The notes below the pieces were generated by a model. That model had not been told where the DNA came from. It ran no database searches and worked only from the letters and a program-made list of their open reading frames with translations. Both the position numbers and the translations under genes were made by a program. Shown here one piece after another: positions 10,779 through 43,414 of a DNA stretch of 64,000 nucleotides; position 1 is the stretch's first letter; each line of letters begins with the position of its first letter. Origin of the DNA: an uncultured Gammaproteobacteria bacterium (lineage in GTDB: Bacteria; Patescibacteriota; Patescibacteriia; Veblenbacterales; UBA10138); contig CAYGDX010000001.1 in assembly GCA_964348825.1 (NCBI GenBank), forward strand, positions 239,463 through 303,462, written 5' to 3'.

Positions 10779-11798
10779 ATGTCTCATAAAATTATTTACA
10801 TATTAAAACGCCTAGTAATTATTTTAATACCTTTAGTTGCTATATTTACTCTTTGGCAATTTTTTTCGCCGGTAAGTAATTCAAATCAAGTAATAAATAT
10901 TCCAAATGGTGCTAGCGCTAAGCAAGTGGGGCAGATGCTCAAAGATAAAAATTTAATTCGTAGTGAATTTTGGTTTGAAGTGTGGGTGCGATTATCTGGC
11001 AACCAAAAGAATTTTGTAATGGGTGAGTATCTGATAGAACCAAAACAAAGTTTAGTAAATTTAATTTCTTATTTAACTGGTAGTGCTCAAGCGAACAACG
11101 AAGTAGTGGTAAAAATAATTGAAGGGTGGAGTTTGCGTGAGGTGGGGGAATACTTAAAAGCTAATAAAATTTTATCAGATGACTTCACTAAATTTATAAA
11201 GAATGAAAAATTATTTAATAATTTAGCGCCCCAAGAATTAAAAGAGTTGTTGGGTAATAAATTGCCAGCAACTTTAGAAGGATATTTATTTCCTGATACT
11301 TACCGTCTTTATAAAAATTCAAGCAGTGCTGAATTAATAAAAAAAATGTTGAATAATTTTGTTACCAAGTTTGATAAAAATTGGAAGGTTGAATTACAAA
11401 AAAATAATCACACCGTAAACGAGGCGGTAATTTTAGCCAGCATAGTGGAAAGGGAAGTGCGAGGTGATTCAGATAGAAGTATGGTAGCCGATATTTTTTG
11501 GCGGCGTTTAAAAATTGGCATGGCTTTGCAAGCTGACTCAACGGTTAATTATGTCACTGGTAAAAATACGCCACGCGCCTTACTCTCAGATTTAGAAATT
11601 AATTCACCTTACAACACTTACAAATGGCGCGGCCTGCCACCTGCTCCAATTAGCAACCCAAGTTCAAGTTCTATCAAGGCAACTGTGTATCCAAGTGCAA
11701 ATGATTTTTGGTATTTTTTAACCACCCCTGAGGGTAGGGTAATTTACTCTAAAACTTTTACTGAGCACGTTAAAGCTAAGAGGAAATATTACCTATAG
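10779..11798 (+). CDS. mltG: Endolytic murein transglycosylase MltG/YceG
   Basis: N-terminal TM helix and the YceG signature LEGYLFPDTY. Length 339 aa. Confidence 0.85.
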   Translation: MSHKIIYILKRLVIILIPLVAIFTLWQFFSPVSNSNQVINIPNGASAKQVGQMLKDKNLIRSEFWFEVWVRLSGNQKNFVMGEYLIEPKQSLVNLISYLTGSAQANNEVVVKIIEGWSLREVGEYLKANKILSDDFTKFIKNEKLFNNLAPQELKELLGNKLPATLEGYLFPDTYRLYKNSSSAELIKKMLNNFVTKFDKNWKVELQKNNHTVNEAVILASIVEREVRGDSDRSMVADIFWRRLKIGMALQADSTVNYVTGKNTPRALLSDLEINSPYNTYKWRGLPPAPISNPSSSSIKATVYPSANDFWYFLTTPEGRVIYSKTFTEHVKAKRKYYL

Positions 11799-11926
11799 TT
11801 TAGTTTGTAACATGCCAGATGACGGAGCAATTAGTTAATATTATTTATCAATCCGATAGTTATCCGATGTGGAGCCCATAGATTTTCCAATGATATTTCT
11901 CTGACACATTATGGGGGTGAACATCC

Positions 11927-11979
11927 CGCACCAGAGCACCAATTAGTGCAATCATAAATCAAATGGTGCTCTTGGTGCG
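11927..11979. other. Inverted repeat (15-bp arms CGCACCAGAGCACC / GGTGCTCTTGGTGCG, 24-nt spacer) downstream of mltG, with no T-tract
   Basis: Read directly. Lacks the U-run of an intrinsic terminator. Confidence 0.5.
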
Positions 11980-12055
11980 TGGATGGTATTGTATAGATTG
12001 AAATTTTAATAGTAGTTTTTTGTAAACTAGTGTCTATCCGATACTAGTTTTTTAG

Positions 12056-12084
12056 TTGACAGAATCGAAAATCTGTGCTAATAT
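12056..12084 (+). promoter_or_regulatory. Near-consensus sigma70-type promoter of the giant ORF (TTGACA-17 bp-TAATAT)
   Basis: TTGACA at 12056..12061, a 17-nt spacer, then TAATAT at 12079..12084. This lies about 75 nt upstream of the ATG at 12158. Confidence 0.7.
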
Positions 12085-12157
12085 ATAGATAACGATACAG
12101 TATCGGATAATATATCGGATACAAAATCGCCTAAAATAAACAAAAAAACAAAAATAT

Positions 12158-15100
12158 ATGAATCCAGTTGAACCTGGGAGTGTTGTAAAATCAACTTCCC
12201 AAGACAACTTAATAAGTACGCCTTCTGACCAAGAATTAATTTCTTTGGCTGAGGCCGCAAAGCTTACCCCATATAGTCAGGAGTATATTTCACTCTTGGC
12301 TAGACGGGGTAAGCTTTTAGCTTGGAAAAAAGGACGCAACTGGTGTACGACTCGCGAGGCGGTACAAAGTTATCTTGATAAACAAACTAAAGATGCTGCC
12401 GAAAAATTAGAACGTCATCAAGTTGTATTAGAATCATCTAAACCAGAAATCAAAGAAGTTAAACCCGGGATTATTTTGTCTCCAGAACAATTACTCCCAG
12501 TTGCAGAAATAAAAGTAGCAACTCCAATTGTTTCAGAAATTAAAGTTAGTCCCGAAATAAAACCAGAAGTGCCTGTGGTTATCCCAGTTGAAAAAGTTGC
12601 TACAGCAGAAAGTTCAGCGGTGCTTGCGGCGCGAGAAATTGCGAATGTGCTCGGAGAAACTTTGGGTGCTAGGTTTGATAGTATCAAACAAGAATTAAAA
12701 CAAGTGAACGAACAAGTAAGTAGATCAGTGCCGGCTTATGCTACACCAGTTCCGTCAGCGGTAGTTGTTAAACAAAATAAAATAAAATCGCACTGGTTTT
12801 ATTTGGCATTATTTTTAATTGCGGTGCCAGTAATTATTTTTAGTTTAACGCAAGGGTTGGCCGAAGATGCGCCAGGCAAACTTTTGGCGTCACTAAAAAA
12901 TGCTTGGACACTTGATGGCCACCGTGCTGGCACCGAAGCCAATGAAGTTTTAATTTTAAATGAAGCTGGAAATATTTCTATCAAAGGTCATATTGAAACT
13001 CAAGGTCAACTTCGCTCGTACGCGCGCGACGGCATCGCGCCAATCGTAGTTGACTCAACAACTAAAATTGAAAAATTAAATGCCGATGCAATTGATGGCT
13101 ATTCTAGTGAGCAATTTAATTTAGCCTTCATCACTAAGCAAGGTAATGTAACGAGTGATGATGTTTACTTAAAAGGTAAGGTAGAAGTTGGACAAATTTT
13201 AGAAGTGAAAGGAGCTACCAAACTTTTGGATGAGTTATTAGTTGGCGGAGGTTTAGGTGTGTGGGGTAAATCTTTTTTTCATAACGATGTGGCAGTGGAT
13301 GGTAAAGTTGATGTTAGTAAATCGCTGGCTGTAAAAAAAGATATTACCGCGGGTGGCAATGTAGTCGCTCAAAATAAAGTAGTGGCAGAAAAAGGTTTGG
13401 AAACTGGTGGTGATATAGTGACCAACAACAATGATATATTTTTGGGTAGCGGTACAATTATTAAAGAAGGTAAAGAATTAATTAAAAATTTAAATGCGGA
13501 GTATTGGAATGGGCAAGCCGCTTCAGATTTTAATTTGGATATGATTACCGACAACGGTGCGGTAACTGATAACCAAATTACTGTGGGTGGAATTAATTCT
13601 ACTGGTACATCTCGCTTCACTGGTCGCACTGAATTACTTGGTGAGACAGTAATTGGTAATTTAGAATCATTAACAGTAAACGGTAAAACTAATTTAAGAA
13701 ATACAGATGTTTCAGGAACTTTGGCGGTGGCTGGTCATGGTTTGTTTTCCAGTTTAGGTGTAGCGGGTAGTGCCGGCGTAATAAATTTATCTTCTAAAGA
13801 ATTTTCTACCACCAACGCTTCAATTGGTGGTAGCTCTAGTAATACTTTGGCGGTAGCGGCTTCATCAACTTTTTCTGGACCAATTAGTGCATCAAATAGT
13901 GTGAGTTTAACTTCAGCTACACCAGCTATTTCAACTAGCGCTGGTGATTTGGTTTTACAATCAAAAGGCGCAACGACTACCGCGAATGTACAAATTGGTG
14001 TGGGTGGCGATGGTTCAACTACGCCTGATCTTTTAGTGCTTGATGTAAAATCTGACGCTACTGATCCAACCGGTACCGATGGCGCAATGTACTACAATAC
14101 TTCAACTGATAAATTCCGTTGTTATGAAAATGCCGCTTGGACTGATTGTGTAGGTGCGGGTGGTGGCGGAGGCTCGACTTTGCAAGCCGCTTACGTTTCC
14201 GGTAATACAATAAGCACCACCACCGATGATGGTGATTTAGCTGTTACTTTGGCCGACACTACTACTGATCGAAATTTTACTGTGACAATTGCCGATGGTG
14301 CGACTGGCACGGTTTCTATTTCTCGAGCCGATGGTGCGGGCACAAGTGACCCATCTCAACTTTTGTTACTTGATAATTTAGATACTAATCGTTCTATAGC
14401 TGATGGTCTTAAAATTCAATCGGCCGCTGGTTTAATAGTTGACGGTATTGATGTATCAGATGCGGAACTTACCAATGCTCTTAATGTTGGTGATAATATT
14501 ATCGCCGGCACCACGGCTGAAATTAATTTTAGTAATTTTGATTTGGCAACTTCCGGTAATATTCAAGTGGCGGCGGGAGTGGGGCTTGATACTAATGGCG
14601 CCGGCAGTTTAACGCTCGGTGTTTCAAACGCCACCACGATTGATATCGCTGGTGGATCTTCTTCCACTGGCTGTACTATTACGAATGCGACTGGTAGTTT
14701 AGTATGTTCCGGAATAAATAGCACTCCAGTTGGGGCAACGTCACCAAGCACTGGTGCTTTTACAACTTTATCGTCAACTGGCGCTACTACTTTAGGAAAT
14801 AATTCTTCAACTGTTGCGGTTGATACTACATCTTGGGATATTTCTTCAGCCGGTGCAATTTCTGGTTTAACAGGATTAACTGTTGCTTCAGGTACGGTTT
14901 CATTGCCTAATGGACAAATCGATAATTCTGAATTAGCTAATTCAACTATTACTTTTGCTGGCGACACTGGTTCTTCAACTACCGCCTTAGGCGCAACTCG
15001 TACGATTGCTGGTGGTGGTGGTTTGACTTCAGCTGATAATAGTTCAGGAACTTTAACTTTAGCAGTTGGAGCTGGCACCGGTATTACTGTTAATGCTGAT

Positions 15101-18100
15101 GATTTAGCTGTTAATCAATCAACTGCTTTTGCTTGGACTGGTCAACAATCTTGGACTGCTACAGTTACAGCCACTGGCGCTTTAGGAGATTTTAATCCGA
15201 CTTTGGGCAATGATACAGATGTTGATACAGTAGCCGGCATTCAAATTGATGCTACTTCAGCTGCCACTGGCGACGCTGATAATTTTTATGGTTTAAATAT
15301 TACTTTGGCTTCAGCCGATGCGACAGTCAATGAGCGAGCAATTGAAATTGGTTCAGGTTGGGATTCAGCTTTATCTGTTGGCGGCTCTTCAATTATTAAT
15401 GGTTCAGGTGTTTTACAATCCGCTGGACTTTCTGGTACTTATTCAAATGCCTTAACTTTATCATCAGCTACTAATTCTATTACCGCTGGCACTTTAATTG
15501 TGGGAGCGGATACTGTAACTGATTTAACTGGTACAGGACTTCAAGTAGTGGCCAATGCTTTGCAAGCTACTTTGGGTACAGATATTACTTCATCTGAAAT
15601 TGCTGATGATAGTATTATGAATGTAGATATTAATTCAGCGGCCGCAATTGCTTTTTCCAAATTAGCCGCGCTGACCTCCGGCAACATTTTAGTGGGCAAC
15701 GGTTCTAATGTAGCAACTAGTGTAGCGATGAGCGGTGATGTGTTAATTTCCAATGCGGGTTTAACAACTATCCAACCTGATGCAGTGGTTTTGGCGACTG
15801 ATACTTCAGGCAGTTATATTGCTACCATTGCCGGAAGCACTCAAGTTGGCGTATCTGGTTCAGGTTTAGAAAATGCGGCAGTATCACTCTCTATTAATAA
15901 TGATTCAATTGGCGATACTCAATTAGCTTTTGATACAGGTCAAACTTTAACTACTACCGCTACGCCACAGTTTGCGCGACTTGGTGTGGGGGTAGCGGCC
16001 GACGCAACTAATATTTTAACTGCCACTTCTACTTCAACTACTGATTTAAGTAAGGTCTTAAATATTTCTCACACTGGCGCCATTACTGGCACTGGTTATG
16101 CTAGTTATTTTTCTAAAACTGGGGCATCCACCACTAATGTTGGTTTATATTCAACTGCTTCGGGTGCTAGTAATAATTACGCCGCGGTTTTTGAGGCGGG
16201 CAATGTTGGTATTGGTGATACAACTCCCAGTTCAAAATTAGAAATTGGCGATGGCACAGATTCATTACAAATTTCAACAGTTGGTGATTTAACTTTTGTG
16301 GATGCTGACGGCGCGGCTTCAATTACTGGTCCAGCCGGCGGCGCTTTAACTATCGCTAGTGGCGCTTCGCAGGCTTTAACTTTAACTGGTAACGCCGCTT
16401 CTATTTGGGATATTGGTGCTAATGTTTTATCTTTGCAAACTACTAACAATGGTGCGATTACTACTGGCACTGGACTTTTAACTTCGGGTGGTAATATAAC
16501 TTTTTCTGGAACTTCTGCGCGCACAATCACTGGACCAAATACTGGCGCCGCCGCGGCCTTAACTTTAACTACCACTGGCAATGGTTCAGGATTAAAATTA
16601 ACTAGCGCGGCTGGGGCCTCTGGCAATTCAGGCGCCATTACTTTGCAAAGTGGTGATACTGCTACTTCCGGAACTTCAGGTGCTATCACAATTGATTCTG
16701 GTGCTGGTGTAACTGCGAATGGTGTGATTACTATTGGTACGACCAACGCACCAACTACTACAATTGGTGGTTGTACTTTTGATCGTGTGGCTGGCAGTAT
16801 GAGTTGTTCGGGAGCAGTTGGTGGTGGTACTGGTACACAAGGTTATTGGAATCGTAGTGGTACAACTTTAAGTCCAGCTACTGCTGGTGATTCTGTTTCA
16901 ACTTCCGGTGCAATTTCTACCACTGGTACTGGCGCTGTTACTTCAGCTGGTACTTTAACTGCTTCAGCCGATTTCACTGCCAATGGTAATGTTCAATTGG
17001 GTGACAACACGGCTGATACTTTAACGATTTATCCAACCGCTTGGACTGCCACGCCAACTATTTCCGGACTTATCACAGCTACTTCTGGAATAACGTCTAA
17101 TGGTACGGCGACTTTTAATACTAACACTAATTTTACTCTAGCTGGTGCTGAAAATGTTTCTCTCACTAACACTACCGCTTCGGCTGATCAATTATCACTC
17201 GCTGTTTCCGGTGTGACCACTGATGCAGTGGATGGTTTAGCTATTGCCTTTACCCAAGCTGACGATGCTGATGCCGCTGATACTAATGCCGCACTTAATA
17301 TTAGTTTAACTTCTTCTTCCACTGACGCTGATACTTTGTATGGTATCAACTTGTCTAACATCACAGCTGGTACAGCAAATGAATACGCCATCAATATTGG
17401 TACAGGTTATGATCGAGGTATTAACTTAGGCGCTAACTCAATTGTTGGTTCAACTGGTATTATTGATTACACTAATTTTGATGTTGATGCTTCTGGCAAT
17501 GTTACTGTTGCCGGCGACTTGGCTGTTAATGGTGGCAATGTTAACTTTGGTGCTACCACTACAATTGGTGATGGTGGCGATGCTTTAACTATTGATTCTA
17601 ATGGAACTTTAACTATTAGTGACGCTACTGTTACTGGTTCCGGCGCTTTAACAGTTACACCAGCTGCGGCGTCCGCTTTGACTTTAGGTACCACTGGTGT
17701 GGGCAACACTACTTCTATTACTTTAGCCACTGACTCAACTGGTGATGCTGAAGTGGTTTTGCCAACTGGTTCGGTTTCTGGTACAGAAATTTTAGATGAC
17801 ACAGTTGTCCTCACTACTGACACAGCTGGTGATTATGTGGCTTCAATTACCGCTGGCGGTGGTTTAACCGGTACAACTTCAGGTGAAGGTTCAACTCCAA
17901 CTCTGGCGGTTGGTGCTGGCACTGGTATTACAGTTAATGCTGATGACGTGGCAATCAATCAAGACACTTCTTTTACTTGGACTAATTCTCACGCCTTTAC
18001 TCTAGCTGGTGCTGAAAATGTTTCTCTCACTAACACTACCGCTTCGGCTGATCAATTATCACTCGCTGTTTCCGGTGTGACCACTGATGCAGTGGATGGT

Positions 18101-21100
18101 TTAGCTATTGCCTTTACCCAAGCTGACGATGCTGATGCCGCTGATACTAATGCCGCACTTAATATTAGTTTAACTTCTTCTTCCACTGACGCTGATACTT
18201 TGTATGGTATCAACTTGTCTAACATCACAGCTGGTACAGCAAATGAATACGCCATCAATATTGGTACAGGTTATGATCGAGGTATTAACTTAGGCGCTAA
18301 CTCAATTGTTGGTTCAACTGGTATTATTGATTACACTAATTTTGATGTTGATGCTTCTGGCAATGTTGATGCCTTAGGTACTCTTACCGCAGGTTCCGCA
18401 AATGAAGTACTTACTTTATCAACTGGCAAAATTGATGCTGACGCTATTACTTTAGCTGCCTCTGGTACTACTGGTTCTACTTCAAGTCGTTCTGGACTTC
18501 AAACTAGTTCTGACGGTTTAACGCTTTTAATGGGTTGTGCTGATGGCCAACTTTTGGAGTGGACTGATGCTAGTGGTTGGGCTTGTGCGGCAGACGATAC
18601 TGGTAGTAGTGGAGCTAGCGTGGAAGAAGGTGACAGTGCGGCTGTGGCGGCTTTATCTGTTCTTGATTTCTTAGCCGCAGATTTTGTAGTATCAGAAAGT
18701 CCAGCCAATGAAGCTAATGTGAGTATTGATTATCCAAATTCTGGCATTACCCGCAAAGCTCAAGCTGAAACAATTTCTGGTGGTTGGACATTTAATACTG
18801 CCGCCACTACTTTCACCACCGCCATAAATGCTAATGGTGGTATTACCACTACCACCGCTGATCAAAATTTAGCTTTTTCAGCTAATGGCGGCGGCGATTT
18901 TGTTTTCAATGTTGATAGCGGTACTTTTGTTTCTATTACTGGAACAGCTGACGGTGAAAGCGCCTTAACCATTGCGGCTGGCAACCTTACTCTAACCGAT
19001 GGCGACCTAGCTGTTTCCGCTGGCGATTTCAACGTCAATCTCGACGACGGCGACACAGTTAATATCGATGGCGATGCCACACCAACCGCTGATTTATTAA
19101 AACTTGGCAATGGTGATACCTCCGCGACTGATGATGTTGATGCTTTGCAAATTACTTTTGCTACGAGTGGTGCCTCAGGTAATTTAATTGATCTTAGTCC
19201 AACTTTTGCGGATTCTGATGCTGGAAACTCAGCCGAAACTTGGAATGCTGTTAATGTTAATGCTTTTACCGTCACCCAAAATGATTCAGGTGGTGCCATC
19301 ACTGGTGTAGTCAATGGTTTTAATTTAGGCAACCTCACAGAATCTCCAACTGGTGATGATGCTATTACTTCTACGGCAATTAAACTTGGAACAGGTTGGG
19401 ATTATATTTTTGATACAGCTGGGTTTGATGTGTTAGGCGCTACTGGTGCTACCACTATTACTGGTAGTGGTGATGGTACTGACGCTTTAACTTTAACTGC
19501 TGGTGATATTTTAGTTACTAATGGTGACCTTGATTTATCAGGTGGCGATTTTAATGTTATTTTGGATGCGGGTGATGGCGTGAACATTACTAAAGGTGCC
19601 GCGCCAACTGTTGATGTATTTTCAATCAATGGCTCAACTTCAACTACTGATGGTGTGGACGGTTTGCAATTAACATTTGGTGTTTCCGCCGCTTCCGGCA
19701 ATGTGATTGATATTACGCCAAGTTATACTGATGCCACAGCTGGTGCTACTTCAGAGACATACAACATTATTGACGTCGATGCTTTTACCGCCACCCAAAA
19801 TGCCACTGGTGACACTGGTTTAATAAATGGTTTAGCGATTGGTGCCTTAACTCAAACTGAAACCGCTGGCGCTTTAACGGCTTATGCTTTAAATATTGGT
19901 TCTGGTTGGGATAGTGTTTTGCGGGTGAATGGTACGGAAGTTGTTGACGCTTCTGGTAACGTGCCGGTAGCTAGAATTAATGGCACCCTCTTTACAGTTC
20001 AAGGTGACAATGCCGCTGGTCGCGCTATAACTCAAGGCAATACTTTAACTATTGCTGGTGGTACTAATTTAACTAGTGTAGATGCCGATACAGATACTGT
20101 TACTATCAACCTTGATGATTCAATTACTCTAGCTGGTGACCTAACAGTGCAAGGTCAGAATGTTAATTTTGATAATGCCACTGATATTGATATTGATGAT
20201 AACACTGCTTCGTCATTTACCATTTCTGAGGGCGCTAATAATTATTTCTTAATTACCACTACTAATGATAGTGAAGTAGTAACTTTAAATTTACCAGCTG
20301 GCGGCGCTACTTCTTTAACTGGCAATCTTTTTACTTCTGACATTGTAAAAACTATTAATATTGGTACTGGCACGGCGGCTGACACTATTAATTTAGGTAC
20401 TGGTACTACTAATCCTGATGCTATAAATATTGGCACTACTGATACTGTTGCTCATGTGATAAGAATTGGTGATAATACTGGTGCCTCTTCTTCTGACATA
20501 GCTATTGCTGACGCACAATGGAGTATAACTACCGCCGGTCTCATCACCACGGCCGATAATTTAGCGGTGAATGGTGGAGATATAACAACAACTGCCACTG
20601 ATCCAAATATTTTTAATACTGGTACAATATCTACTATAGATATTGGCGCTACCGTAACTGGCAACATTACTTTTTCTAATGGCTCTGGTTCTAGTGGTTG
20701 TACTATTGATGGTTCTGGTAACTTAGCTTGTGCAGGTACTATCACTGGTTCAACTTCTGGCGCGCAAGGTTATTGGACTCGTACTAGCACAACATTATCT
20801 CCTACCAACGCCGGCGATAGTATTGATATGCCTTCCGGTACTGGTGTATTTACCCAAACTTACGCTCCAGCCGGCACTACCGTGGCCGCTACTGGTGCGA
20901 CTTTTATTCCAACGTTTGGTGTGCACGCGGATAATCAGACTTTGGTTGGTGTAGCAATTAATCCAGTTACGAATTCCAATGATGACACTGGTGATATTTT
21001 AAATGCTTTAAGTATTGGCACTATCAATGCCACCTTGGCAAGTGAGCGCGCCATTTATATTGGCACGAGTTATGATACTGATTTAGTGTTTGGCGATACT

Positions 21101-24100
21101 ACACCAGTCGTAACTTTTGGTGATGGCGGCAACTTAACTTTCACCGATGGCACTAATACTTTACTCACTTTAACTGACGGTGGAACAGTTGGGAATTTAA
21201 GTGTCAGTGGCGACGTTACTACTACTGGCGATGTGGCGATAAATGGTGGCAATCTAAATTTTGGTGCGGCGACTACGATTGGTGATGGCGGCGATACAAT
21301 TGCTTTTAGTTTGAAAGATAATTCAGCTGATGCTTTAGATGTTCAACAAAGTACTAACAATTACATAAACATCAACACTTCTGATGGTAATGAAAATATT
21401 GCTCTTTCTACTTTACGTCAAACTGGTGGTGATGCTATTTCATTACTTGGTGATTCAATTACGACCGGTACAGCAGTTGGTGTTTCAGCTGATGTTATAA
21501 CCACTGGTGTGGCTTTAGATATTTCTTCAATTTCAACTGTGGCTAGTTCAGCCGATTTAATTCAAGTTGATCACACTGCGACTTATGTTACAACAGTTGC
21601 TAATTCCGGTAATTTACTTGATTTATCACGCGCTTTAACTACTAACACTGGTGGCGCTTTAACTAATAGTGGCGCAGTTGCTACTATCACTTCCAATTGT
21701 ACTCAAACCGCCGGTACTTGTACTGATACCGCAAACATTTTATCACTTACTCAAAGTTATGCTTCAGCTTCGGGAGCAGTTATTAAAACTTCCAATGCTG
21801 GTACGGGTGTTGATATTGAATTAGATAATGCCGAAACAATTGATAACTCTGTCAACGGTACAATCAATCTTGGCACCACAACTTTTAAACTTACTGGCGG
21901 TACCACCATTGTGTCTGATCAAGCTACAGTGGCTTTACTTGATTCTACCACCACCACTATTAATTTTGGTTCAGCCGCCACGGCTGTTAACTTAGCTGAT
22001 GCTGCTATCACTGGCACAATTGATATTGGCGGTGTGACAGCTGATGGCGCTTCAACTATTAATATTGCGACCAACTCTACTTCATCTGATACTTTAGTCA
22101 TTGGCAACTCTAACGCTTCTACTTTAGTTACTTTAACAGGTGGTGATGATTGGTCCATTTCTAATACTGGTGTACTTACATTAGATGGTACAACTTTAGA
22201 CATCAACTCACTTGATTTTGTTGGCGCTGGTACTTTTACTTCAGGTGCGGCAACTAATTTAACTTTAACTCCCGGTACCACTGGTGACTTAGTATTTTCG
22301 ACTGACGCTGATACCACTGCTACATTTTCTGGTTCAGCTGATGGCACAGCTAATGTTATTTTAACAGCTGGTGATTTAACTCTCACTGATGGCGATCTGG
22401 CTGTATCAGCTGGTGATTTCAATGTGACTTTAGATGCTGGTGATGGTGTGACGATTACTAAGAATGCAGTGCCAACGGTTGATATATTTACCATTTCCAA
22501 TACTGGGCAAGGTATCACTACCACTGATGGTGTAGATTCACTGGCTTTAACTTACGTACAAGCTACTAATGCCGCGGCAGTAGCTGGCTCTGCTTTAGAT
22601 ATTTCTGTTACTCAATCCGGTGATGCTTCGGATACGATTCGTGGTATTAATATCAATAATATTACTGGCGGTTCTTCTACCGAAACTGCTTTATCAATTG
22701 GTTCAGGTTGGGACACTGACTTAGCTTTTGTTGATACTTCACCAACTGTAACTATTGGTGGTGGTGGCACTATCACTTTCACTGATGGTACCAACACATT
22801 GTTTAGTATTGCTGATGCCGGTACAACTGGAAATGCTACAACGACTGGCAACTTAGCAGTTAGTGGTGGCGATATTACCACTGGCGCCGCAACGTTTAAT
22901 TTCGTGGCTGGAACAACCACTCTTAATTTAGCCGGCGGTTCTGGTTCCACTGGTTGTACGGTTGATGGTTCAGGCAACCTTACTTGTACTGGTGCAATTA
23001 CGGGTTCAGCTTCTGGTGCGCAAGGTTATTGGACTAGAACTGACAATATTTTAACTGCCACCAATGCCAATGATATTTTATCATTACCTTCTAATGACGC
23101 TGATTCACCAGTACTTAATTTGGCTTCTTCCGCTATCACTGCCAATGGCACAGCTTCTTTAAATCAAGCGGTGACAGTTAGTTCATCCGCCGCCGGTGTA
23201 ACAGCTTATGGTTATAAATTAGCTCTAACTAATAATCCATCTACCAATGCCAATACTTTATATGGTGAATATATTTCTTTTACTGATGCTGGATCGCTAG
23301 CTAATACTGTAACTGGACTTTATGTTGATGCCACCACTGCTAATGCTTCGGATACTACTTATTCAGGGGTTTTTACCGGTGGTAATTTTGGTATTGGTGA
23401 TACAAGTCCAGCTGCTTTATTAACAGTTGGTAGTGGTGATTTATTTCAAGTAGATTCTTCTGGTAATGTTACGGCTGTTGATTTAGCCGTGAATGGTGGA
23501 GATATTACTGGTGCTACCACTATGAACGTCTTTAACACTTCAACCACTATTAATTTAGCCGATGCCGCTATTACTGGCACGATTGATATTGGTGGTGTAT
23601 CAACTAATGGTACAACTACAGTTAATATTGCAACTGAAGGCACCTCAGCTGATGTTATTACAATTGGCAATTCTAATGCTTCCTCAACTGTTGCGATTAC
23701 TGGCGGCAATGACTGGTCAATTGCTGCTAATGGTAATTTTGTTACCTTAGGAACTTTAACTGCTGGCTCAGGTGCGGAAGTTATTACTTTGTCAACCGGT
23801 AAAATTGATGCCGATGCTATTAGTTTAATGACTGCTACGAATGGTGTTGGCACTACTTCAACTGCCTCGGGTTTGGAAGTAGTGAGTGACAAATTATCAT
23901 TATTGCAAGGTTGTACTGATGCTTATATTTTAAAGTGGGAAGAAGATACAGATACTTGGGATTGTGCGGCAGATGCCACTGGCGGTGGAGCAGGTAGTTT
24001 GCAAGGCGCTTATGATGGTACAAATACTATTACGACTTCAGATAATCGTGACATTGCTTTTACTTTGGCCGATACCAACTTAACCAACACCACGCCAGAT

Positions 24101-27100
24101 GCTAATGATTCTGATTTTACTGTGACTACTGCTTCAGGTAGTACCAGTGAAACAAAAATTATTTTAGCTGATGGTGTTGGTACAGTATCGCCAACAGAAT
24201 TGTTATTAATTAATAACGCGGATACTTCAGGCAATACTTTGGCTAATGGTATTACCGTTAGTTCCGCTGGTTCAGCCATCACCACAGGTATTAATTTAAC
24301 TGATGCGGATTTAGTAAATGCAATTAGTGTAGATGCCAATACTATTTTAGGCACCACTGGTGATATAAATTTTACAAATTTTGATGTTACAGGTTCAAGT
24401 GGTGATGTTGTAACCGGAGGTGATGTGGCAGTGAATGGTGGAGACATTACTGGCGCCACCACTATGAATGTTTTTAATACTTCAACCCTCATTAATTTAG
24501 CCGATTCCGCAATTACTGGCACGATTGATATTGGTGGGGTAACGGCCGATGGTGCAACTACCATTAATGTGGCCACTCATTCAACTTCAGCCGATGTAAT
24601 AACAATAGGTAATTCCAATGCTTCAACTACAGTGGCGATTACTGGTGGTGATGATTGGGCAATGGCCGCCACTGGTGTACTCACTATGTCAGCTTCCGCC
24701 GCCGCTACCACTGCGATAGTTATTACTGATACTGATTATACTAACGCTTTATCTATTGGTGATAATATTATTACCGGTACAACCTATAGTTTAGTTGGCA
24801 CATCGGCAACTATTGATTTTTCCGAATTTGATGTAGCCGCCGCTACCGGCGCTATTACTATCAACGATGATGGGGATGCTGGAAATATTTCTATTGAAGG
24901 CACGGTGCTGGATATTAACTCACTTGATTTTGTCGGCGCGGGCACTTTAACTTCCGCAGCGACTACGAATTTAACTTTTACTCCTGGTACCACTGGTGAT
25001 TTAGTATTTTCCACCGATGCTGACACCACCGCCACCTTTAGTGGTTCAGCTGAAGGTACAGCTAATGTTATTTTAACGGCTGGTGATTTAACTTTGACCG
25101 ATGGTGATTTAACATTATCAGGTGGTGAAATAGCTGCGACTTCAGATGATGCCACTGGTACAAATTTTAATTTTACTACTGGCGCATTAACTTCTGGTAC
25201 AGGTTTGGCAGTGGCCACCACTGGTGCTGTGGCTACGGCTTACACTGGCGATGTGATTAATGGTAGTTTTACACAGACCGTAACATCGGGTACGCCATTT
25301 AACAATACTGGCAATGTACTTGACATTTCTCGTGCTTTAACTATTAATCAAGCAGCCGGTGATACAGTCACACAAAGTGGTGCCCTAGTTAGTTTTACTT
25401 CAACTCTAGCGGCCGGTGGTGCGGGAGGTACTTTAGCTGATTCGTCAAATATTTTAGCTTTAGCTCAAAGTTGTGGCGGCGGTTTCTCTTGTACCGGCGC
25501 AGTATTAGGTATTACCAATGCTGGTACAGGTAGCGCTATTGCAATAGGTGCTATGTCAGCAAGTAGCGCCACTACCTCAGTCGCTAGTATTGATATTGGT
25601 GCTATTACTACAACCAACATAACTACTTCTACTGGTTTGAAAATTGGAGCTTTATCTGGTACGGGTACTACTGGTTATGGAATTGATATAGCTGGTATTA
25701 CAAAAACTGGTACTACAGCTACTGCTATTAACATTGGCGCTATGTCAGGCGCTGCCACTACTAACACTGGTATAGCAATTGGCAATCTATCAGCCGGTAC
25801 CACTTCTAATGGTATTACTATCGGAACTAATTCTTCAGCAACTTCAAAAGGTATCACTATCGGAGCAATGACTGGCGCCACTACTAACACTGGTATTGAT
25901 ATTGGCAACATTAGTACTGGTACCACTTCCAAAGGTATTAACATTGGGACTTTAGCTGGCATCAATGGCGGTACTGTCACTGGCATAGCTATCAGCACTA
26001 TGTCTGGTGCCGCTACCACCACTTCGGCTACTAGTATTGATATTGGTGCTATTACTACAACCAACATAACTACTTCTACTGGTTTGAAAATTGGAGCTTT
26101 ATCTGGTACGGGTACTACTGGTTATGGAATTGATATAGCTGGTATTACAAAAACTGGTACTACAGCTACTGCTATTAACATTGGCGCTATGTCAGGCGCT
26201 GCGACAACAAATACTGGGATCGCTATTGGAAATTTATCAGCTGGTACAACTTCCAAAGGTATTACTATTGGTACTAATTCTTCAGTTACCGCCACCGGTC
26301 TAGATATTGGTGCTTTATCTGGCACCACAGCTAATATTGGGGTGAAGGTGGGAGCTATTTCAGGAGCTAGTGGCACAGGAACAGGTCTTGATATTGGAGC
26401 TTTTACTAATACTGGCGCTACTCAATATGGAGTCAATATTGGAGCTTTTTCAGGAACACATGCGGCAGGAGGAGGAACCACTGCTGGAATTAATATTGGG
26501 AATATTTCTTCAGCAGGAACTACTTCATCAAATTATGGAATTCAATTAGGAACAATGACTGGTGGTACCACTGCAAATTATCAAATTAGTACTGGTATCT
26601 TAACTTCAGCTACCACCACAACTAATGCTCAAATTAATTTAGGTGGGGTGGTCACAACCGGTGGTACTACTAATTATGGTATCAATGTGGGGGCACTCTC
26701 TGGCACTGGTACCACTAACTATGGAATAAATGTTGCTGCATTGACATCTGTTGGAACTACAAATTATGGGTTAAATGTTGGTGGCGCGACTGGAGCGGCT
26801 ACTACTAATTATGGCGTGTTTGTTGGTGCAGTAACTGGAGCTTCCACCAATATTAGTTTGGCCTTTGCCAAAGAAAATGCACATACTATTAAAGTTTTAG
26901 ATAGTACAACTGCTGATACTGTAGGCGGTGCCTTAAGTATTACTGCTGGCGCCGCGGCAAATAGTACATCTACCGCTCGAGCTGGTGGGGCTATTACCCT
27001 AACAGCTGGAGCTGGTGCGGCAAATAGTAGCGCTACTACTGGTCAAACAGCCGGTGCGGGTGGAGCACTTAATATTAATACTGGAAATGGTGGTAATGAA

Positions 27101-29902: not shown

Positions 29903-29944
29903 TCCGTCGTCACAAATGTCCGGCCGGACATTTGTGACGACGGA
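29903..29944. promoter_or_regulatory. Perfect 42-bp palindrome TCCGTCGTCACAAATGTCCGG|CCGGACATTTGTGACGACGGA between the giant ORF stop and the PaaX-like gene start
   Basis: Read directly. There is no loop and no T-tract. It may be an operator or a bidirectional terminator. Confidence 0.6.
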
Positions 29945-29966
29945 GTAATTAGATTATAATATAACT

Positions 29967-30509
29967 ATGATTAAAAAGAATGAATCAGTAACTCACTTCG
30001 TGTTAAAGTCGTTGGCTGTGGTTGGCAGTATCACAGTAGATTTTTATACTTGGACGAATGATTTACGACGTTGGCAGTACCATTATGAAAGTAATCGTGA
30101 GTGGAAAAATTATTTAAAATATATTAAGGATAAAAATAGATCACGTAAATTATTACATAATTTAAAAAGAAGAAATTATATTAAGATTAATAAAATAGGT
30201 AACAGGGTTATAATTAGTTTAACTGATAAAGGTAAAATGGCAGCACTTAAAAATAGTTTATTACAAACTAAAAAGATGTCAGATAAATATACTGTAGTAA
30301 TTTTTGATATTCCCGAAACAGCACGCTTAGCCAGAGTATTATTTAGAAAATTATTAAAAGAAGCTAGCTTTAAAAAATTACAACAAAGCGTGTGGATATC
30401 AAATTGTGATGCCCATGATATCATGATTAAATTTATTAAAGAGCAAAAAATAGATAAATGGGTTAACGTATTTTATGCTACCGATTTGTTCAAGAAGTTG
30501 AATTTGTAA
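29967..30509 (+). CDS. PaaX-family-like small regulator (N-terminal wHTH-like region plus a C-terminal Cas2-fold/PaaX_C-like segment)
   Basis: The C-terminal YTVVIFDIPETARLARVLFRKLLKEASFKKLQQSVWIS fits the Cas2/PaaX_C pattern (YDIPE...R..L.K.L...GF..LQ.SVW). Length 180 aa, Lys-rich. Confidence 0.5.
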   Translation: MIKKNESVTHFVLKSLAVVGSITVDFYTWTNDLRRWQYHYESNREWKNYLKYIKDKNRSRKLLHNLKRRNYIKINKIGNRVIISLTDKGKMAALKNSLLQTKKMSDKYTVVIFDIPETARLARVLFRKLLKEASFKKLQQSVWISNCDAHDIMIKFIKEQKIDKWVNVFYATDLFKKLNL

Positions 30510-30624: not shown

Positions 30625-30833
30625 AGTTTTACAACTTAAATCGCCACAGACAGTAGGTGTCCCATGTTCATCGGACTTAAGCTCAAAAAGGCCTGCCGAG
30701 GTAAGTAGTCAAGAGTCATAATTTTTGACTGATAGCTTATTATCTGTGGGTTAACCACAGTTTTTTTATTTAGAATTCGGTTGCTTTAGCAACCACCCAC
30801 CAAATCGGCGGGTAAAAGCGGGACTTTTATTTT
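30625..30833 (+). promoter_or_regulatory. rplJ 5' leader (candidate L10(L12)4 autoregulatory leader) with an internal hairpin plus U-run
   Basis: About 200-nt structured UTR. CTGTGGGTTAACCACAG is followed by TTTTTTTATTT. A GGTTGCTTTAGCAACC hairpin lies just before the RBS region. Confidence 0.45.
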
Positions 30834-40114: not shown

Positions 40115-41857
40115 ATGCCGCAAATACCAGAGAAAATTTTTCAATCCAGACTAGCTTTAGTGCGTCTGGCTTTTTTTATTGGTTTTGCTGTTATAATTTT
40201 ACGTTTATTTGAAGTGCAGGTGATTGATCAATCACTTTACGCGGCACTTGCTTCTAATCAACACGATATTCTGGCGGAACTTTTTCCGGAGCGGGGTAAT
40301 ATTTTAACTCGTGATACTTTAAGTGATAGTGGTGTTTACCCAGTGGCGGTGAATCGAAAATTATGGCAAGTTTATGCTGTACCACGTGATGTTACTGATG
40401 CTTTGGACGCGGCTACTAAATTATCACCGATTTTGGGATTACCCAGTGAAGAAATTCTAGTTCGTTTAACTTTTGACCCAACTGATCCTTATGAACCGCT
40501 AGCCCGCGAACTAAGTGATGAAGCGGCCGAGCAAATTAAAAATCTAGCTTTGTCTGGTATAAAAACCGCGCCGGAAACTGTGCGGTTTTATCCTGAAGCT
40601 GAACTTTATTCACAAATTTTAGGGTTTATTGGATTTGCCGATGATAAGAAAGTTGGGCGTTATGGTGTAGAACAATATTTAGAAGAAATTTTGGCTGGGG
40701 CGCCTGGCAAATTAATTTCGGAAAAAGATCCGGGTGGACGATTAATTATGTCGGCCTCACGTTCAATTGTGCCAGCTGTTGCGGGGGCTGACGTTGTTTT
40801 AACAATTGATAAAAATATTCAATTTCAAAGTTGCAGGGCGCTAGCTATGGCGGTAAAAAAGCATGAAGCACTTGGCGGCAGTGTGCTAATTATAAATCCC
40901 AAAGATGGCGCCATACTAGCACTTTGCTCAATACCTTCGTTTGATCCCAATAATTATCGGGGGGTTTCAGACATTGGTCGTTTTTTAAATCCGATAAGTT
41001 CAACTGCTTATGAAATTGGTTCGGTATTTAAACCAATTACTATGGCGCTCGCACTTGATGCGAGTAAAGTAACCGCTGACACAATTTATGAAGATACTGG
41101 CAGTGTGGTATTTGGTCCTGATGTTATAAAAAATTCTGATAGCAAGGCAAATGGCACGCAGACAATGACTCAGGTGTTGGAAAAATCACTTAATACTGGC
41201 GCAATTTTTGCAATGAGATCTGTGGGTAAAAAAGTATTTAGCGAGGGCGTAAAAAATTTTGGATTTGGTGATGTTACAGGCATTGAATTACCACACGAAT
41301 CAGCGGGTAATATAAAATCTTTAAATGAAAAGCAAGAAATTTATTTCGCTACTGCTTCATTTGGTCAAGGTATTACTGCTACGCCACTGCAAATGGTACA
41401 GGCCTTTGGCGCGATTGCAAACAAGGGTAAATTAATTCGACCACATTTAATTTCAGAGATTCGTTATGAAGGTGGTAAGACGGTTATAACAGAACCAACT
41501 TTGGTACGCCAAGTTATTAAACCAGAAACAGCTACTACGCTAGGCGCCATGCTAGTTTCAGTGGTCGAAAATGGTCATGGTAAACGTGCGGGTGTGCCGG
41601 GGTATTATGTAGCTGGCAAAACTGGTACGGCTGAAATTTCTTTATCTGGTGGTGGTGGTTATGAAAAGCATAAAAATATTGGCACTTTTATTGGTTTTGC
41701 GCCTTTAAATGATCCTAAATTTGTGATGATTACAAAAATTGTTGAACCACAGGGGTTAGTTTTCGCCGAAAGTTCAGCCGCACCGCTATTTGGCGAATTA
41801 GCGAAATATCTGCTACAGTATTACCAAGTTCCGCCAGAACGGAAAGTAGGGAAGTAG
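40115..41857 (+). CDS. ftsI: Class B penicillin-binding protein (FtsI/PBP2-type transpeptidase)
   Basis: Contains an SxxK motif (GSVFKP), SxN (KSLNTG) and KTG (AGKTGTAE). It has an N-terminal TM helix. Confidence 0.88.
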   Translation: MPQIPEKIFQSRLALVRLAFFIGFAVIILRLFEVQVIDQSLYAALASNQHDILAELFPERGNILTRDTLSDSGVYPVAVNRKLWQVYAVPRDVTDALDAATKLSPILGLPSEEILVRLTFDPTDPYEPLARELSDEAAEQIKNLALSGIKTAPETVRFYPEAELYSQILGFIGFADDKKVGRYGVEQYLEEILAGAPGKLISEKDPGGRLIMSASRSIVPAVAGADVVLTIDKNIQFQSCRALAMAVKKHEALGGSVLIINPKDGAILALCSIPSFDPNNYRGVSDIGRFLNPISSTAYEIGSVFKPITMALALDASKVTADTIYEDTGSVVFGPDVIKNSDSKANGTQTMTQVLEKSLNTGAIFAMRSVGKKVFSEGVKNFGFGDVTGIELPHESAGNIKSLNEKQEIYFATASFGQGITATPLQMVQAFGAIANKGKLIRPHLISEIRYEGGKTVITEPTLVRQVIKPETATTLGAMLVSVVENGHGKRAGVPGYYVAGKTGTAEISLSGGGGYEKHKNIGTFIGFAPLNDPKFVMITKIVEPQGLVFAESSAAPLFGELAKYLLQYYQVPPERKVGK

Positions 41858-41886
41858 TAAATAGCAGGAAAGCTTGGTAGCACGTA

Positions 41887-42127
41887 GTCATTGCGAGCGA
41901 AGCCCCAAAAGGCGAAGCGAAGCAATCTCTCAAAAAAAACTAATGACTAATTTCTAATTTCTAAAAAATCCTAAATCCTAATATCTAATTCCCTGCCTAC
42001 CGGTAGGCAGGCCAAATAAATCTTAAAATCCTAATACTTAAAAAATAAACTTTTTTGATTTATGATTTGGGATTTATTTAGGATTTCGGATTTAGAAATT
42101 AGGATTTAAACAAATATTAGATATTTT
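41887..42127. repeat. Composite intergenic repeat, near-duplicate in architecture of 998..1244 (GTCATTGCGAGCGAAGC hairpin, AATGACTAATTTCTAATTTCTAAAAAATCC, CCCTGCCTACCGGTAGGCAGG, GATTTATTTAGGATTTCGGATTTAGAAATTAGGATTTAAACAAAT)
   Basis: Read directly. Ends at the murF start. Confidence 0.75.
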
Positions 42128-43414
42128 ATGCTTCGTTTTATTATCAAACACGTCTTACGTTTACTGGCGCGGTGGACTATAAAAAAGTACCATCCCCGTA
42201 TCGTTGGTATTACTGGTTCAGTGGGAAAAACTGGTACCAAAGAAGCAGTGGCGCAAGTTCTCTCCACCAAATTTAAAGTTGGGCAAACTCCAAAAAATTT
42301 AAATAATGAAATTGGTTTACCGCTTGCAATTTTGCGCGAACACGATTCGGGTTACAGTAATTTATTTTTATGGTTGGGAATTATTAGTCGCGCTATTAAA
42401 AATTTAATTATTACGCGTGAAAGTTTCCCTGAGGTATTGGTGCTCGAATACGGCGTAGATCACAAAGGAGATATTGATTATTTAGTTAAAATAGCGCGGC
42501 CGGAAATTGCGATAGTTACTGCGGTTTCTCCGACTCATTTGGAATTTTTAGGTACAGTGGAAGATGTAGCGCGAGAAAAAGGTAAATTGGTTAAAGCACT
42601 GCCTCCAAGCGGTGTGGCTATTTTATCAGCCGATGACGCGCGGGTTTTAAATATGGAAAATTTAACTCGTGCTCGTGTGATTACTTATGGTTTAAGTGAT
42701 AAGGCAGATATAAATGGTGCAAATATAACTTTAAATTGGGCCAACGATACTTGGCCACGTGGTATTATCTTCAAGCTTAATATTCAAGGCAAAAGTTTGC
42801 CGATTTTTATTCCCAGTGTGGTTGGCAATCCACCAGTGACAGTTACTTTGGCGGCGGTGGCTTGTGCTATCGCTATGGATATTTCAATTTTAAATATTAA
42901 TGATGTATTGCAAAAAATGCCATTACCGCCCGGGCGACTGCGGCTTATTTCCGGCATTAAAAATAGTTTATTGATTGATGATACTTATAATTCATCCCCG
43001 CGCTCCGCTGGCGAAGCGCTCCAAGCTTTATCGTTAATAGAGCCAAAAAATTTTGGTAAGCGTTTTGCGGTTTTAGGTGATATGCTTGAGCTTGGCAAAC
43101 AAAGTGAAAAATTACATCGCGAAATTGGAAGTCAGGTAGCTAATTTGCCAATTGATTATTTGGTAGCGGTGGGTGCTCAGGCGAGGCATTTTATTCACGG
43201 CGCGGTGGAGGGCGGTTTCAGTCAAGACCATACTTTTCATTTTGATAAAAGTGAGCAAGCAGGAAAATTTATACAAGATAAAATGGGGGAGGGTGATGTG
43301 ATTTTAATTAAGGGTTCGCAAGGCGTAAGATGCGAAAAAATTACTAAAGAATTAATGGCCGAGCCAGCACGGGCGAAGGAATTGCTCGTTCGACAATATA
43401 GTCCTTGGATTTAA
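42128..43414 (+). CDS. murF: UDP-N-acetylmuramoyl-tripeptide--D-alanyl-D-alanine ligase (short form)
   Basis: Mur-ligase P-loop GITGSVGKTGTKE and the MurF C-terminal signature IDDTYNSSPRSAGEAL. Confidence 0.8.
   Translation: MLRFIIKHVLRLLARWTIKKYHPRIVGITGSVGKTGTKEAVAQVLSTKFKVGQTPKNLNNEIGLPLAILREHDSGYSNLFLWLGIISRAIKNLIITRESFPEVLVLEYGVDHKGDIDYLVKIARPEIAIVTAVSPTHLEFLGTVEDVAREKGKLVKALPPSGVAILSADDARVLNMENLTRARVITYGLSDKADINGANITLNWANDTWPRGIIFKLNIQGKSLPIFIPSVVGNPPVTVTLAAVACAIAMDISILNINDVLQKMPLPPGRLRLISGIKNSLLIDDTYNSSPRSAGEALQALSLIEPKNFGKRFAVLGDMLELGKQSEKLHREIGSQVANLPIDYLVAVGAQARHFIHGAVEGGFSQDHTFHFDKSEQAGKFIQDKMGEGDVILIKGSQGVRCEKITKELMAEPARAKELLVRQYSPWI

Follow-up and report, generated by a model that had tools for sequence, protein, structure and literature searches.

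The stretch of DNA analysed here (hereafter the window), 64 kb of contig CAYGDX010000001.1 from assembly GCA_964348825.1, a member of the Patescibacteriota, contains a gene for a giant protein preceded by a near-consensus promoter and a compact array of 9-bp repeats. We conclude that this array is probably an operator close to the transcription start site (TSS), bound by the gene's own helix-turn-helix (HTH) domain or by a paralogue of it, an arrangement that would make the gene negatively autoregulated. The evidence is comparative overall. The features on which the argument turns are:

11799-12157, intergenic region of 359 nt between the mltG/yceG gene and the giant gene
12056-12061, + strand, -35 hexamer TTGACA, found at the same position in orthologues as TTGAC(A/G/T)
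12076-12084, + strand, extended -10 element TG-c-TAATAT, with TG at 12076-12077, TAATAT at 12079-12084 and a 17-nt spacer to the -35
12093-12097, + strand, half-site CGATA, which with 12101-12105 gives the palindrome CGATA-cag-TATCG
12101-12109, + strand, candidate operator unit O1, TATCGGATA, kept in all close orthologues
12113-12121, + strand, candidate operator unit O2, TATCGGATA, 12 bp past O1
12118-12129, + strand, degenerate third 12-bp unit GATACAAAATCG, of direct-repeat family D1 (3 copies, 12-nt period)
12158-29863, + strand, giant gene, encoding 5,901 amino acids rich in T, G, A and S
12239-12385, + strand, N-terminal winged HTH (residues 28-76, ending in ...GRNW), the proposed binder of the motif
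12794-12850, + strand, single transmembrane helix (residues about 213-231, from a hydropathy scan)

The initial annotation, made from the sequence of the window alone, had ranked TTGACA-17-TAATAT at 12056..12084 among the best promoters in the window, and this ranking held up. The promoter scores 10/12 hexamer matches; the window holds 31 sites of at least 10/12 on its two strands, and few of those combine a perfect -35, a 17-nt spacer and a TG as this one does. The spacing of the hexamers also falls within that of sigma-70-type promoters (16-18 nt apart). From the position of the -10, the TSS would lie at about 12091, and a promoter so near to consensus would be strong if unregulated. Past the -10, the sequence reads aaCGATAcagTATCGGATAataTATCGGATAcaaaATCG, an array with 12-nt periodicity.

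The motif was originally described as an 8-mer present five times in opposite orientations on either side of the promoter. Exact copies of ATCCGATA in the region number four: two on the + strand, at 11851 and 12036, and two on the - strand, at 12101 and 12113, where the + strand reads TATCGGAT. The copy at 11862 is ATCCGATG, only a 7/8 match, in which the 7-nt core ATCCGAT is intact, and a further exact copy of ATCCGATA lies within a gene at 40989. The copies at 11851 and 11862 are 11 bp apart, not in the 10-bp phasing first proposed, and those at 12101 and 12113 are 12 bp apart. The full unit is a 9-bp near-palindrome, TATC[C/G]GATA. Because of this, the two orientations differ in the central base only (C upstream, G downstream), and it is in this limited sense that the inverted copies exist. 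The core ATC[CG]GAT occurs 6 times in the 64 kb, with 5 of the occurrences inside the 359-nt intergenic region. Under a first-order Markov model of the window, evaluated with an analytic Poisson estimate, 0.025 cores would be expected per 359 nt, giving P = 8e-11 for at least 5; for the three upstream copies alone, P = 1.4e-6.

We compared this arrangement with the upstream regions of orthologous loci, that is, of contigs encoding N-terminal fragments of homologous giant proteins. These homologues come from Patescibacteria/Parcubacteria metagenome bins. Twelve orthologous loci (L002-L005, L007, L010, L014, L017, L020, L022, L029 and L109) keep the -35 and -10 as TTGAC(A/G/T)-17-TGnTAnnnT, followed after a gap of 8-9 nt by CGATAnnnTATCGGATAnnnTATCGG, with the 3-nt spacers and the flanks randomised. 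The N-terminus of the giant protein is 50-88% identical in L002-L005, and about 50% identical in L003, L004 and L005; upstream of the latter three, only TTGAC(A/G)-17-TGnTAnnnT, the 8-9 nt gap and CGATAnnnTATCGGATAnnnTATCGGA can be aligned. The CGATA half-site is invariant at every locus of the window's clade, 8-9 nt past the -10 throughout. O2 keeps TATCGGA, its first seven bases, in all close orthologues, while its last two bases vary (TATCGGAGG in L005, L010 and L014; TATCGGATG in L109) and the 3-nt spacer varies freely. The third unit, GATACAAAATCG, is weakly conserved, and any role for it can only be inferred.

The syntenic locus L109 (ManC-YceG-giant-SLT-L10-L12) carries TTGACA-17-TAATAT-9-CGATAcagTATCGGATGtgaTATCGGATG without the upstream copies, and the best-defined promoters of other orthologues read TTGACA-17-GATAAT-9-TATCCGATG..., with the array starting at the same place as in the window. 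At L024-L027, which are more distant (about 35% identity), the units are arranged in inverted orientation as TATCCGATA-nnn-TATCGGATA. Most relatives have such an inverted pair (C,G), whereas the pair in the window's clade is direct (G,G). When an exact 27-nt pattern was scanned against one genome per species, 18 loci were returned, 9 of which are Patescibacteria-type. All 9 precede a gene starting with an HTH of the same YSQEY type as that of the giant protein, 4-208 nt away, and 8 of the 9 share the promoter geometry. The other 9 of the 18 matches are unrelated 12-nt tandem repeats from other phyla, and we set them aside as a chance class created by the periodicity of the pattern.

Conservation across the orthologous loci indicates that the promoter and the proximal pair are under selection. 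A palindromic TSS-proximal site, a motif conserved amid freely varying spacers and co-occurrence with an HTH gene, all properties of repressor-operator systems, are present together. The earlier reading of the five copies as the classic layout of an operator is supported for the TATCGGATA-nnn-TATCGGATA pair, which is conserved in the way of a sequence-specific protein site, but not for the bracketing of the promoter by five sites, a layout that is not conserved in L002 or L109. As an observation apart, L010 (CAYVOI010000001.1, 876 kb) and L017 are labelled 'uncultured Gammaproteobacteria' and carry the Patescibacteria-type promoter-operator together with an HTH giant gene; these genomes are probably mislabelled or mis-binned.

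The motif also tracks a protein domain across two unrelated gene families. In 80 metagenome loci retrieved by HTH-domain alignment alone, we counted 131 cores in the 66.8 kb upstream of HTH matches, versus 54 in the other 216 kb. After assignment of open reading frames (ORFs), 43 of 45 genes with an N-terminal HTH had a core within 400 nt upstream, where about 5% would be expected. The second architecture comprises Fic/DOC proteins of about 310 amino acids that carry the same HTH at the C-terminus (Pfam Fic 76-88 bits, plus an HTH_17-like domain), and a core is found within 400 nt upstream of 24/34 of these Fic-HTH genes. Here two 9-mers 24 bp apart flank the -10, as in TTGACTtaatatcgTATCGGATAtaTAATATtttaagaTATCCGATA. 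The clearest cases read TTGACT-taatatcg-TATCGGATA-ta-TAATAT-tttaaga-TATCCGATA-...ATG, so that the first copy sits in the untranscribed spacer. As a control within the same loci, 54/68 HTH ORFs have a core in the 200 nt before them, versus 8/158 other ORFs, and several of these 8 are themselves HTH genes of a variant type or lie across the same intergenic region from an HTH gene. The window itself has a single gene with a YSQEY-type HTH and a single motif cluster, and this type of HTH is the only feature common to all motif-bearing loci. Judged by these co-occurrences, the motif appears to follow the protein domain, not the gene family. A separate case is L042, which has tandem Fic-HTH genes at 677-1624 and 1724-2671. 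The second has the canonical HTH and a motif pair flanking the -10, and upstream of the first, whose helix is the variant YSAKYLNLLARQGK, there is no motif; the two genes may be an instance of domain-operator co-variation. Subfamilies in which the wing or helix is altered (e.g. ...IGKNW... or ...YSAKYLNLLARQGK...) seem to carry TACCGATA or TACGATA variants or to lack the motif altogether.

The domain in question has the signature YSQEY[IL]SLLARxGK...GRNW, and clades with the ATC[CG]GAT core in common show no difference in its recognition helix, YSQEY[IL]SLLAR. We regard it as a borderline, divergent relative of the HTH_17/TIGR01764 family. An AlphaFold2 model built from a 22-sequence alignment reached a predicted local distance difference test (pLDDT) score of >90 over residues 30-80 and showed a strand-helix-helix-strand-strand-long helix order. 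The top Foldseek matches in the PDB were TraN (4P0Z/4PM3), BldC-DNA complexes, Pukovnik Xis, RdfS, RacA and the N-domains of MerR-family proteins. BldC (6AMK/6AMA) superimposed with a template modelling (TM) score by target of 0.72-0.77 and a root-mean-square deviation (rmsd) of 1.5 A; for BldC, Xis (4J2N) and RdfS (8DGL) taken together, the TM score by target was 0.6-0.77 and the rmsd 1.5-1.9 A. With its K-rich N-flank and its E/D C-flank, the transmembrane helix should, by the positive-inside rule, leave the N-terminus and the HTH in the cytoplasm and place the other 5,600 residues, a stretch rich in T, G, A, S and N, outside the cell.

A library-wide search found 2,375 clusters that carry the HTH domain at E<=1e-3. 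In nearly all of the 150 best matches listed, the HTH lies at the N-terminus or close to it, frequently as 2-3 copies in tandem, and the proteins reach 6,890 amino acids; the tandem copies, present in many family members, match the pairing of the sites. One complete member of 2,077 amino acids (L108, 1501-7734) has two tandem N-terminal HTHs, collagen-like repeats and a C-terminal Peptidase_S74 domain (an intramolecular chaperone), which suggests trimeric fibre assembly for at least some of the family. Just past the stop codon of the giant gene in the window, at 29903-29946, lies a perfect long palindrome, ccgtcgtcacaaatgtccgg / ccggacatttgtgacgacgg, which is likely to act as a terminator or to form a hairpin that protects the 3' end.

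Taken together, these comparisons lead us to the following model, in which we infer the binding itself, the identity of the binder, repression as the direction of control and any role for upstream copies. At 12056-12129, a conserved sigma-70-type promoter is followed by an array, CGATA-nnn-TATCGGATA-nnn-TATCGGATA, in a 12-bp register. Starting about 2 nt past the predicted TSS, the array would span about +3 to +31 of the transcript and would lie inside the footprint of RNA polymerase. It would be read at the DNA level by a Patescibacteria-specific winged HTH of the Xis/BldC/MerR-like kind, supplied by the product of the giant gene itself or by a paralogue that is soluble and shares the recognition helix, for instance a Fic-HTH protein; the gene's own HTH, or a paralogue, appears to be the most economical binder. 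Because the array lies inside the polymerase footprint in the giant class and brackets the -10 in the Fic class, occupancy should block initiation or promoter escape: the bound protein would sit where RNA polymerase binds and clears, and in the Fic genes it would do so around the -10. The copies at 12035 and 11850/11861 would be strain-specific auxiliary sites that may add cooperativity. More tentatively, the HTH of this giant surface fibre protein, translated seconds after promoter clearance while the 17.7 kb are still being transcribed, could shut its own promoter in cis. This would amount to a co-translational, one-shot feedback, possibly with the locus tethered to the membrane, and the HTH-operator pair would then be a portable self-regulation module, carried also by Fic enzymes, with possible cross-regulation between the two.

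Several observations weigh against an autoregulatory operator. A membrane-anchored protein of 5,901 amino acids would be an unusual transcription factor. The HTH of the window falls short of the family cut-offs, with 24.9 bits for HTH_17 (cut-off 27; E 2.5e-5) and 27.5 bits for TIGR01764 (cut-off 28.8; E 3.1e-6). The Foldseek E-values are weak (0.03-0.1), as follows from the small size of the domain (about 50 residues), and a sequence search of the PDB with the HTH profile gave no match. The exact core is missing upstream of 10/34 Fic-HTH genes and 2/45 N-terminal-HTH genes, although in some of the core-less HTH genes the start is miscalled, or the CGATA/TATCG half-site forms part of a variant motif (TACCGATA...TATCGGC or TACGATA-N8-TATCGTA). 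Two neighbouring genes could each be the true regulator in the genomes that have them: one, small and MerR/BldC-like, lies upstream of the orthologue in divergent orientation at 35 loci, and the other, PaaX_M-like, comes after the giant gene both in the window and in L108. Finally, the giant-gene class transcribes the whole array, which is compatible with an RNA role in that class.

Such an RNA role, which we consider quite unlikely, would make the repeats an element of the 5' leader that controls stability or translation, either as a hairpin (CGAUA-nnn-UAUCG or GUAUCGGAUA-nnn-UAUCGGAUAC) or as the site of an RNA-binding protein; in the window, the C-type upstream copies could also pair with the G-type downstream copies in read-through transcripts. 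In the giant-gene class, the array is indeed downstream of the predicted TSS, and in distant orthologues TATCCGATA-nnn-TATCGGATA is a perfect inverted repeat of 9-10 bp that would form a hairpin. The distal pair (11850/11861) and the proximal pair together make a long-range imperfect inverted repeat, with the result that the intergenic region folds better than shuffled sequences (z = -4.2, pairing 11851-11869 with 12101-12121); the leader alone gives z = -3.1. However, the copy that the Fic-HTH genes place between their -35 and -10 is not transcribed, which argues for recognition at the DNA level. The motif profile, built from 42 unique pairs, points the same way: the 7-nt cores are invariant and never covary while the spacers are free. 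Changes at the outer positions are partly G.U-compatible (TG 4 and GT 3), yet the outer pairs are mismatched in 8/31 and only one change, to C-G, is compensatory. The 3-nt spacer shows a dyad-symmetric Y-n-R preference, which makes no sense for a triloop; the G,G units of the window's clade would put a G.G mismatch into a hairpin; L075 carries a direct pair in the opposite strand sense, C,C; and the element has no match in Rfam.

We likewise think it unlikely that the operator is bound by a separately encoded regulator, be it the small MerR/BldC-like protein (71-82 amino acids) or the PaaX_M/Cas2-like winged-helix protein encoded at 29967-30509. The small gene, divergently upstream of the giant gene in those 35 loci, does match MerR-type families (Pfam MerR 40 bits; NF033787 HTH_BldC E 1e-7), and the PaaX_M-like gene recurs after the giant gene in the distant L108 (7789-8352; 25% identity, E 5e-13). 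Neither gene, however, is near the motif-bearing Fic-HTH genes, and the YSQEY-type HTH alone is shared by every motif-bearing locus. The 64-kb window contains no homologue of the small MerR-like gene, which is also adjacent in no locus of the window's clade, where the motif is nevertheless kept. In the syntenic L109, an SLT gene takes the place of the PaaX_M-like gene and the promoter-operator is retained; a search for the PaaX-like gene in the 107 loci first examined gave no match, most of these loci not reaching the 3' end of the giant gene, so that L109 alone bears on the downstream neighbour there. Both the PaaX-like protein and the giant protein's own HTH had been named as candidates in the initial annotation. 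The latter is now the best-supported candidate, since the motif tracks the HTH in two unrelated gene families, and the former is unsupported. We hold it highly improbable that the five copies lack regulatory meaning, whether as the ends or internal repeats of a small mobile or duplicated element, similar to a miniature inverted-repeat transposable element whose inverted ends would be 11850-11869 and 12101-12121, or as a chance cluster within AT-rich intergenic DNA. The inverted repeat does enclose about 230 bp with internal hairpins, and the replacement of 11799-11859 and 11991-12054 in the near-identical L002 is indel-like. Yet blastn of the intergenic region found no second copy in the 64-kb window, nor in more than 100 related loci beyond two near-identical relatives. 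The proximal pair and promoter are kept at about 50% protein identity, where the whole element is absent; the enrichment is far beyond chance; and the motif tracks one protein domain.

The upstream copies are not conserved in the way that the proximal array is. The features upstream of the promoter are:

10779-11798, mltG/yceG gene (Pfam YceG, E 2e-79)
11850-11869, + strand, distal pair AATCCGATA-gt-TATCCGATG, with 11-bp spacing, each unit 8/9 to consensus
12024-12055, + strand, terminator-like hairpin AAACTAGTGTC/GATACTAGTTT followed by a T-run, with 11 pairs and a 5-nt loop
12035-12043, + strand, auxiliary copy TATCCGATA (central C), 13 nt upstream of the -35 and at the tip of the hairpin

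In L002, whose aligned coding DNA is nearly identical to that of the window, the promoter-to-gene segment, the 11862 copy and the block 11860-11990 are kept, and the segments 11799-11859 and 11991-12054, which carry the 11851 and 12036 copies, are swapped for unrelated sequence. L002 retains only the second copy of the distal pair and has other sequence in place of the hairpin segment 12024-12055, and the auxiliary copy at 12035-12043 is conserved neither there nor in L109. Going by these loci, the upstream copies appear to be strain-specific. Extra single copies are found 45-90 bp from the main pair in L026, L027, L031, L041, L047, L049, L067 and L095. A looping operator, as originally suggested, gains from the non-random occurrence of the upstream copies and loses from their positions, which are not conserved in L002 or L109; with extra copies recurring elsewhere, a role as auxiliary cooperative or looping sites is plausible.

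The hairpin at 12024-12055 could end read-through from mltG. Further upstream, a 131-nt block (11860..11990, + strand) is 99% identical in L002, where both of its flanks are replaced, and contains a long imperfect hairpin at about 11925-11982. No Rfam family matches the block, and no copy of it was found in more distant orthologues. It may represent a small RNA, a terminator region of mltG or a recombination remnant. Rfam was searched at gathering scores with the whole window and at E<=10 with the intergenic region; only tRNAs, the L10 leader and noise were returned, leaving the motif unmatched. The L10_leader match (51.9 bits) lies at 30626-30777, upstream of rplJ/rplL, and is ordinary. Two other intergenic regions of the window, 985-1245 and 41857-42128, share a repeat of roughly 230 nt (gtcattgcgagcgaagccc...ggcgaagcgaagcaatc, taatttctaatttctaaaaaatcc, the hairpin cctgcc..ccggtaggcagg, and ggatttatttaggatttcg), which looks like a dispersed intergenic repeat of the genome, unrelated to the ATCCGATA motif. 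In other loci, the small MerR/BldC-like gene (MPKKYLTVNEVAKIFGVTPLTVRNWDKKG...) and the giant gene form a conserved pair, e.g. L025 2274-2522(-), L026 2307-2531(-) and L027 2252-2467(-), with 32 further loci; DnaA-box-like sequences, TTATCCACA / TGTGGATAA, recur near it upstream of the giant-gene orthologues in L025, L026, L027, L039 and L041.

Promoter-proximal palindromic operators and autoregulation are textbook subjects, and BldC/Xis-like domains that act on short repeats are already known. The candidate system resembles several of these in part. Each BldC protomer binds one 9-bp repeat, and the protomers do so cooperatively, forming oligomers along the DNA (PMC5859096). The likeness to BldC, Xis and RdfS lies in the match of fold to the HTH model, in the borderline HTH_17/TIGR01764 scores and, for BldC, in closely and regularly spaced repeats of a 9-bp unit near a promoter. 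However, BldC and Xis are small stand-alone proteins, whereas the domain studied here is fused to a membrane protein of 5,901 amino acids and elsewhere to a Fic enzyme, and BldC sites are contiguous head-to-tail AATTnnnnC repeats, whereas the unit here is the near-palindrome TATCSGATA in a 12-bp register, mostly as an inverted pair. TraN of the Enterococcus plasmid pIP501, the top Foldseek match, binds double-stranded DNA with two excisionase-like folds in one chain, to which the 2-3 tandem HTHs of many family members (e.g. L075 and L094), together with the paired sites, are a parallel. The protein of the window has a single HTH, however, and TraN is a cytoplasmic accessory of type IV secretion and not an autoregulator of a surface protein.

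In its predicted topology, in which the DNA-binding domain at the N-terminus is cytoplasmic and a single transmembrane helix separates it from a C-terminal part outside the cell, the giant protein is reminiscent of ToxR, CadC and TcpP, as it is in having a putative operator at its own promoter. The DNA-binding domain of the ToxR type is OmpR/PhoB-like, whereas this one is Xis/MerR-like (HTH_17/excisionase); a sensor domain lies outside in the ToxR type, in place of which we find a fibrous surface protein of about 5,600 amino acids; and the known ToxR, CadC and TcpP examples are mostly activators of other genes. The position of the sites recalls the operators of lambda Cro/cI, LexA and Phd-Doc, with palindromic units at or flanking the -10 in the Fic class, or at about +3 to +31 in the giant class, a layout of steric repression. 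In autorepressed toxin and Fic-Doc modules, it is the antitoxin that supplies the DNA-binding domain, whereas here the Fic enzyme itself is fused to the HTH. CsrA-type GGA sites, DnaA boxes and NrdR, Fur and LexA boxes were considered for the motif and dropped, as their consensus sequences do not fit. Our literature searches found no description of the motif string, of Patescibacteria HTH giant proteins or of an excisionase-like domain on Fic proteins of the Candidate Phyla Radiation, and likewise none of the pairing of this domain with this motif, of its breadth across Patescibacteria, or of its occurrence on Fic enzymes and on a giant membrane protein of type II.

To our knowledge, almost no transcription factor-operator pairs have been established experimentally in the Patescibacteria (Candidate Phyla Radiation), whose giant surface proteins are thought to mediate attachment to the host. 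The present analysis offers a concrete candidate pair, a domain of roughly 50 residues and a 9-bp motif, that is found in many lineages and is linked to the largest gene of the genome and to Fic enzymes. If the proposed pairing is true, it would describe a new architecture of membrane-tethered regulator, in which a giant membrane protein of type II bears an Xis/MerR-like domain, and would allow regulons to be predicted straight from metagenomes. It would also provide a handle on how these reduced cells limit the production of a protein whose expression requires about 18 kb to be transcribed.

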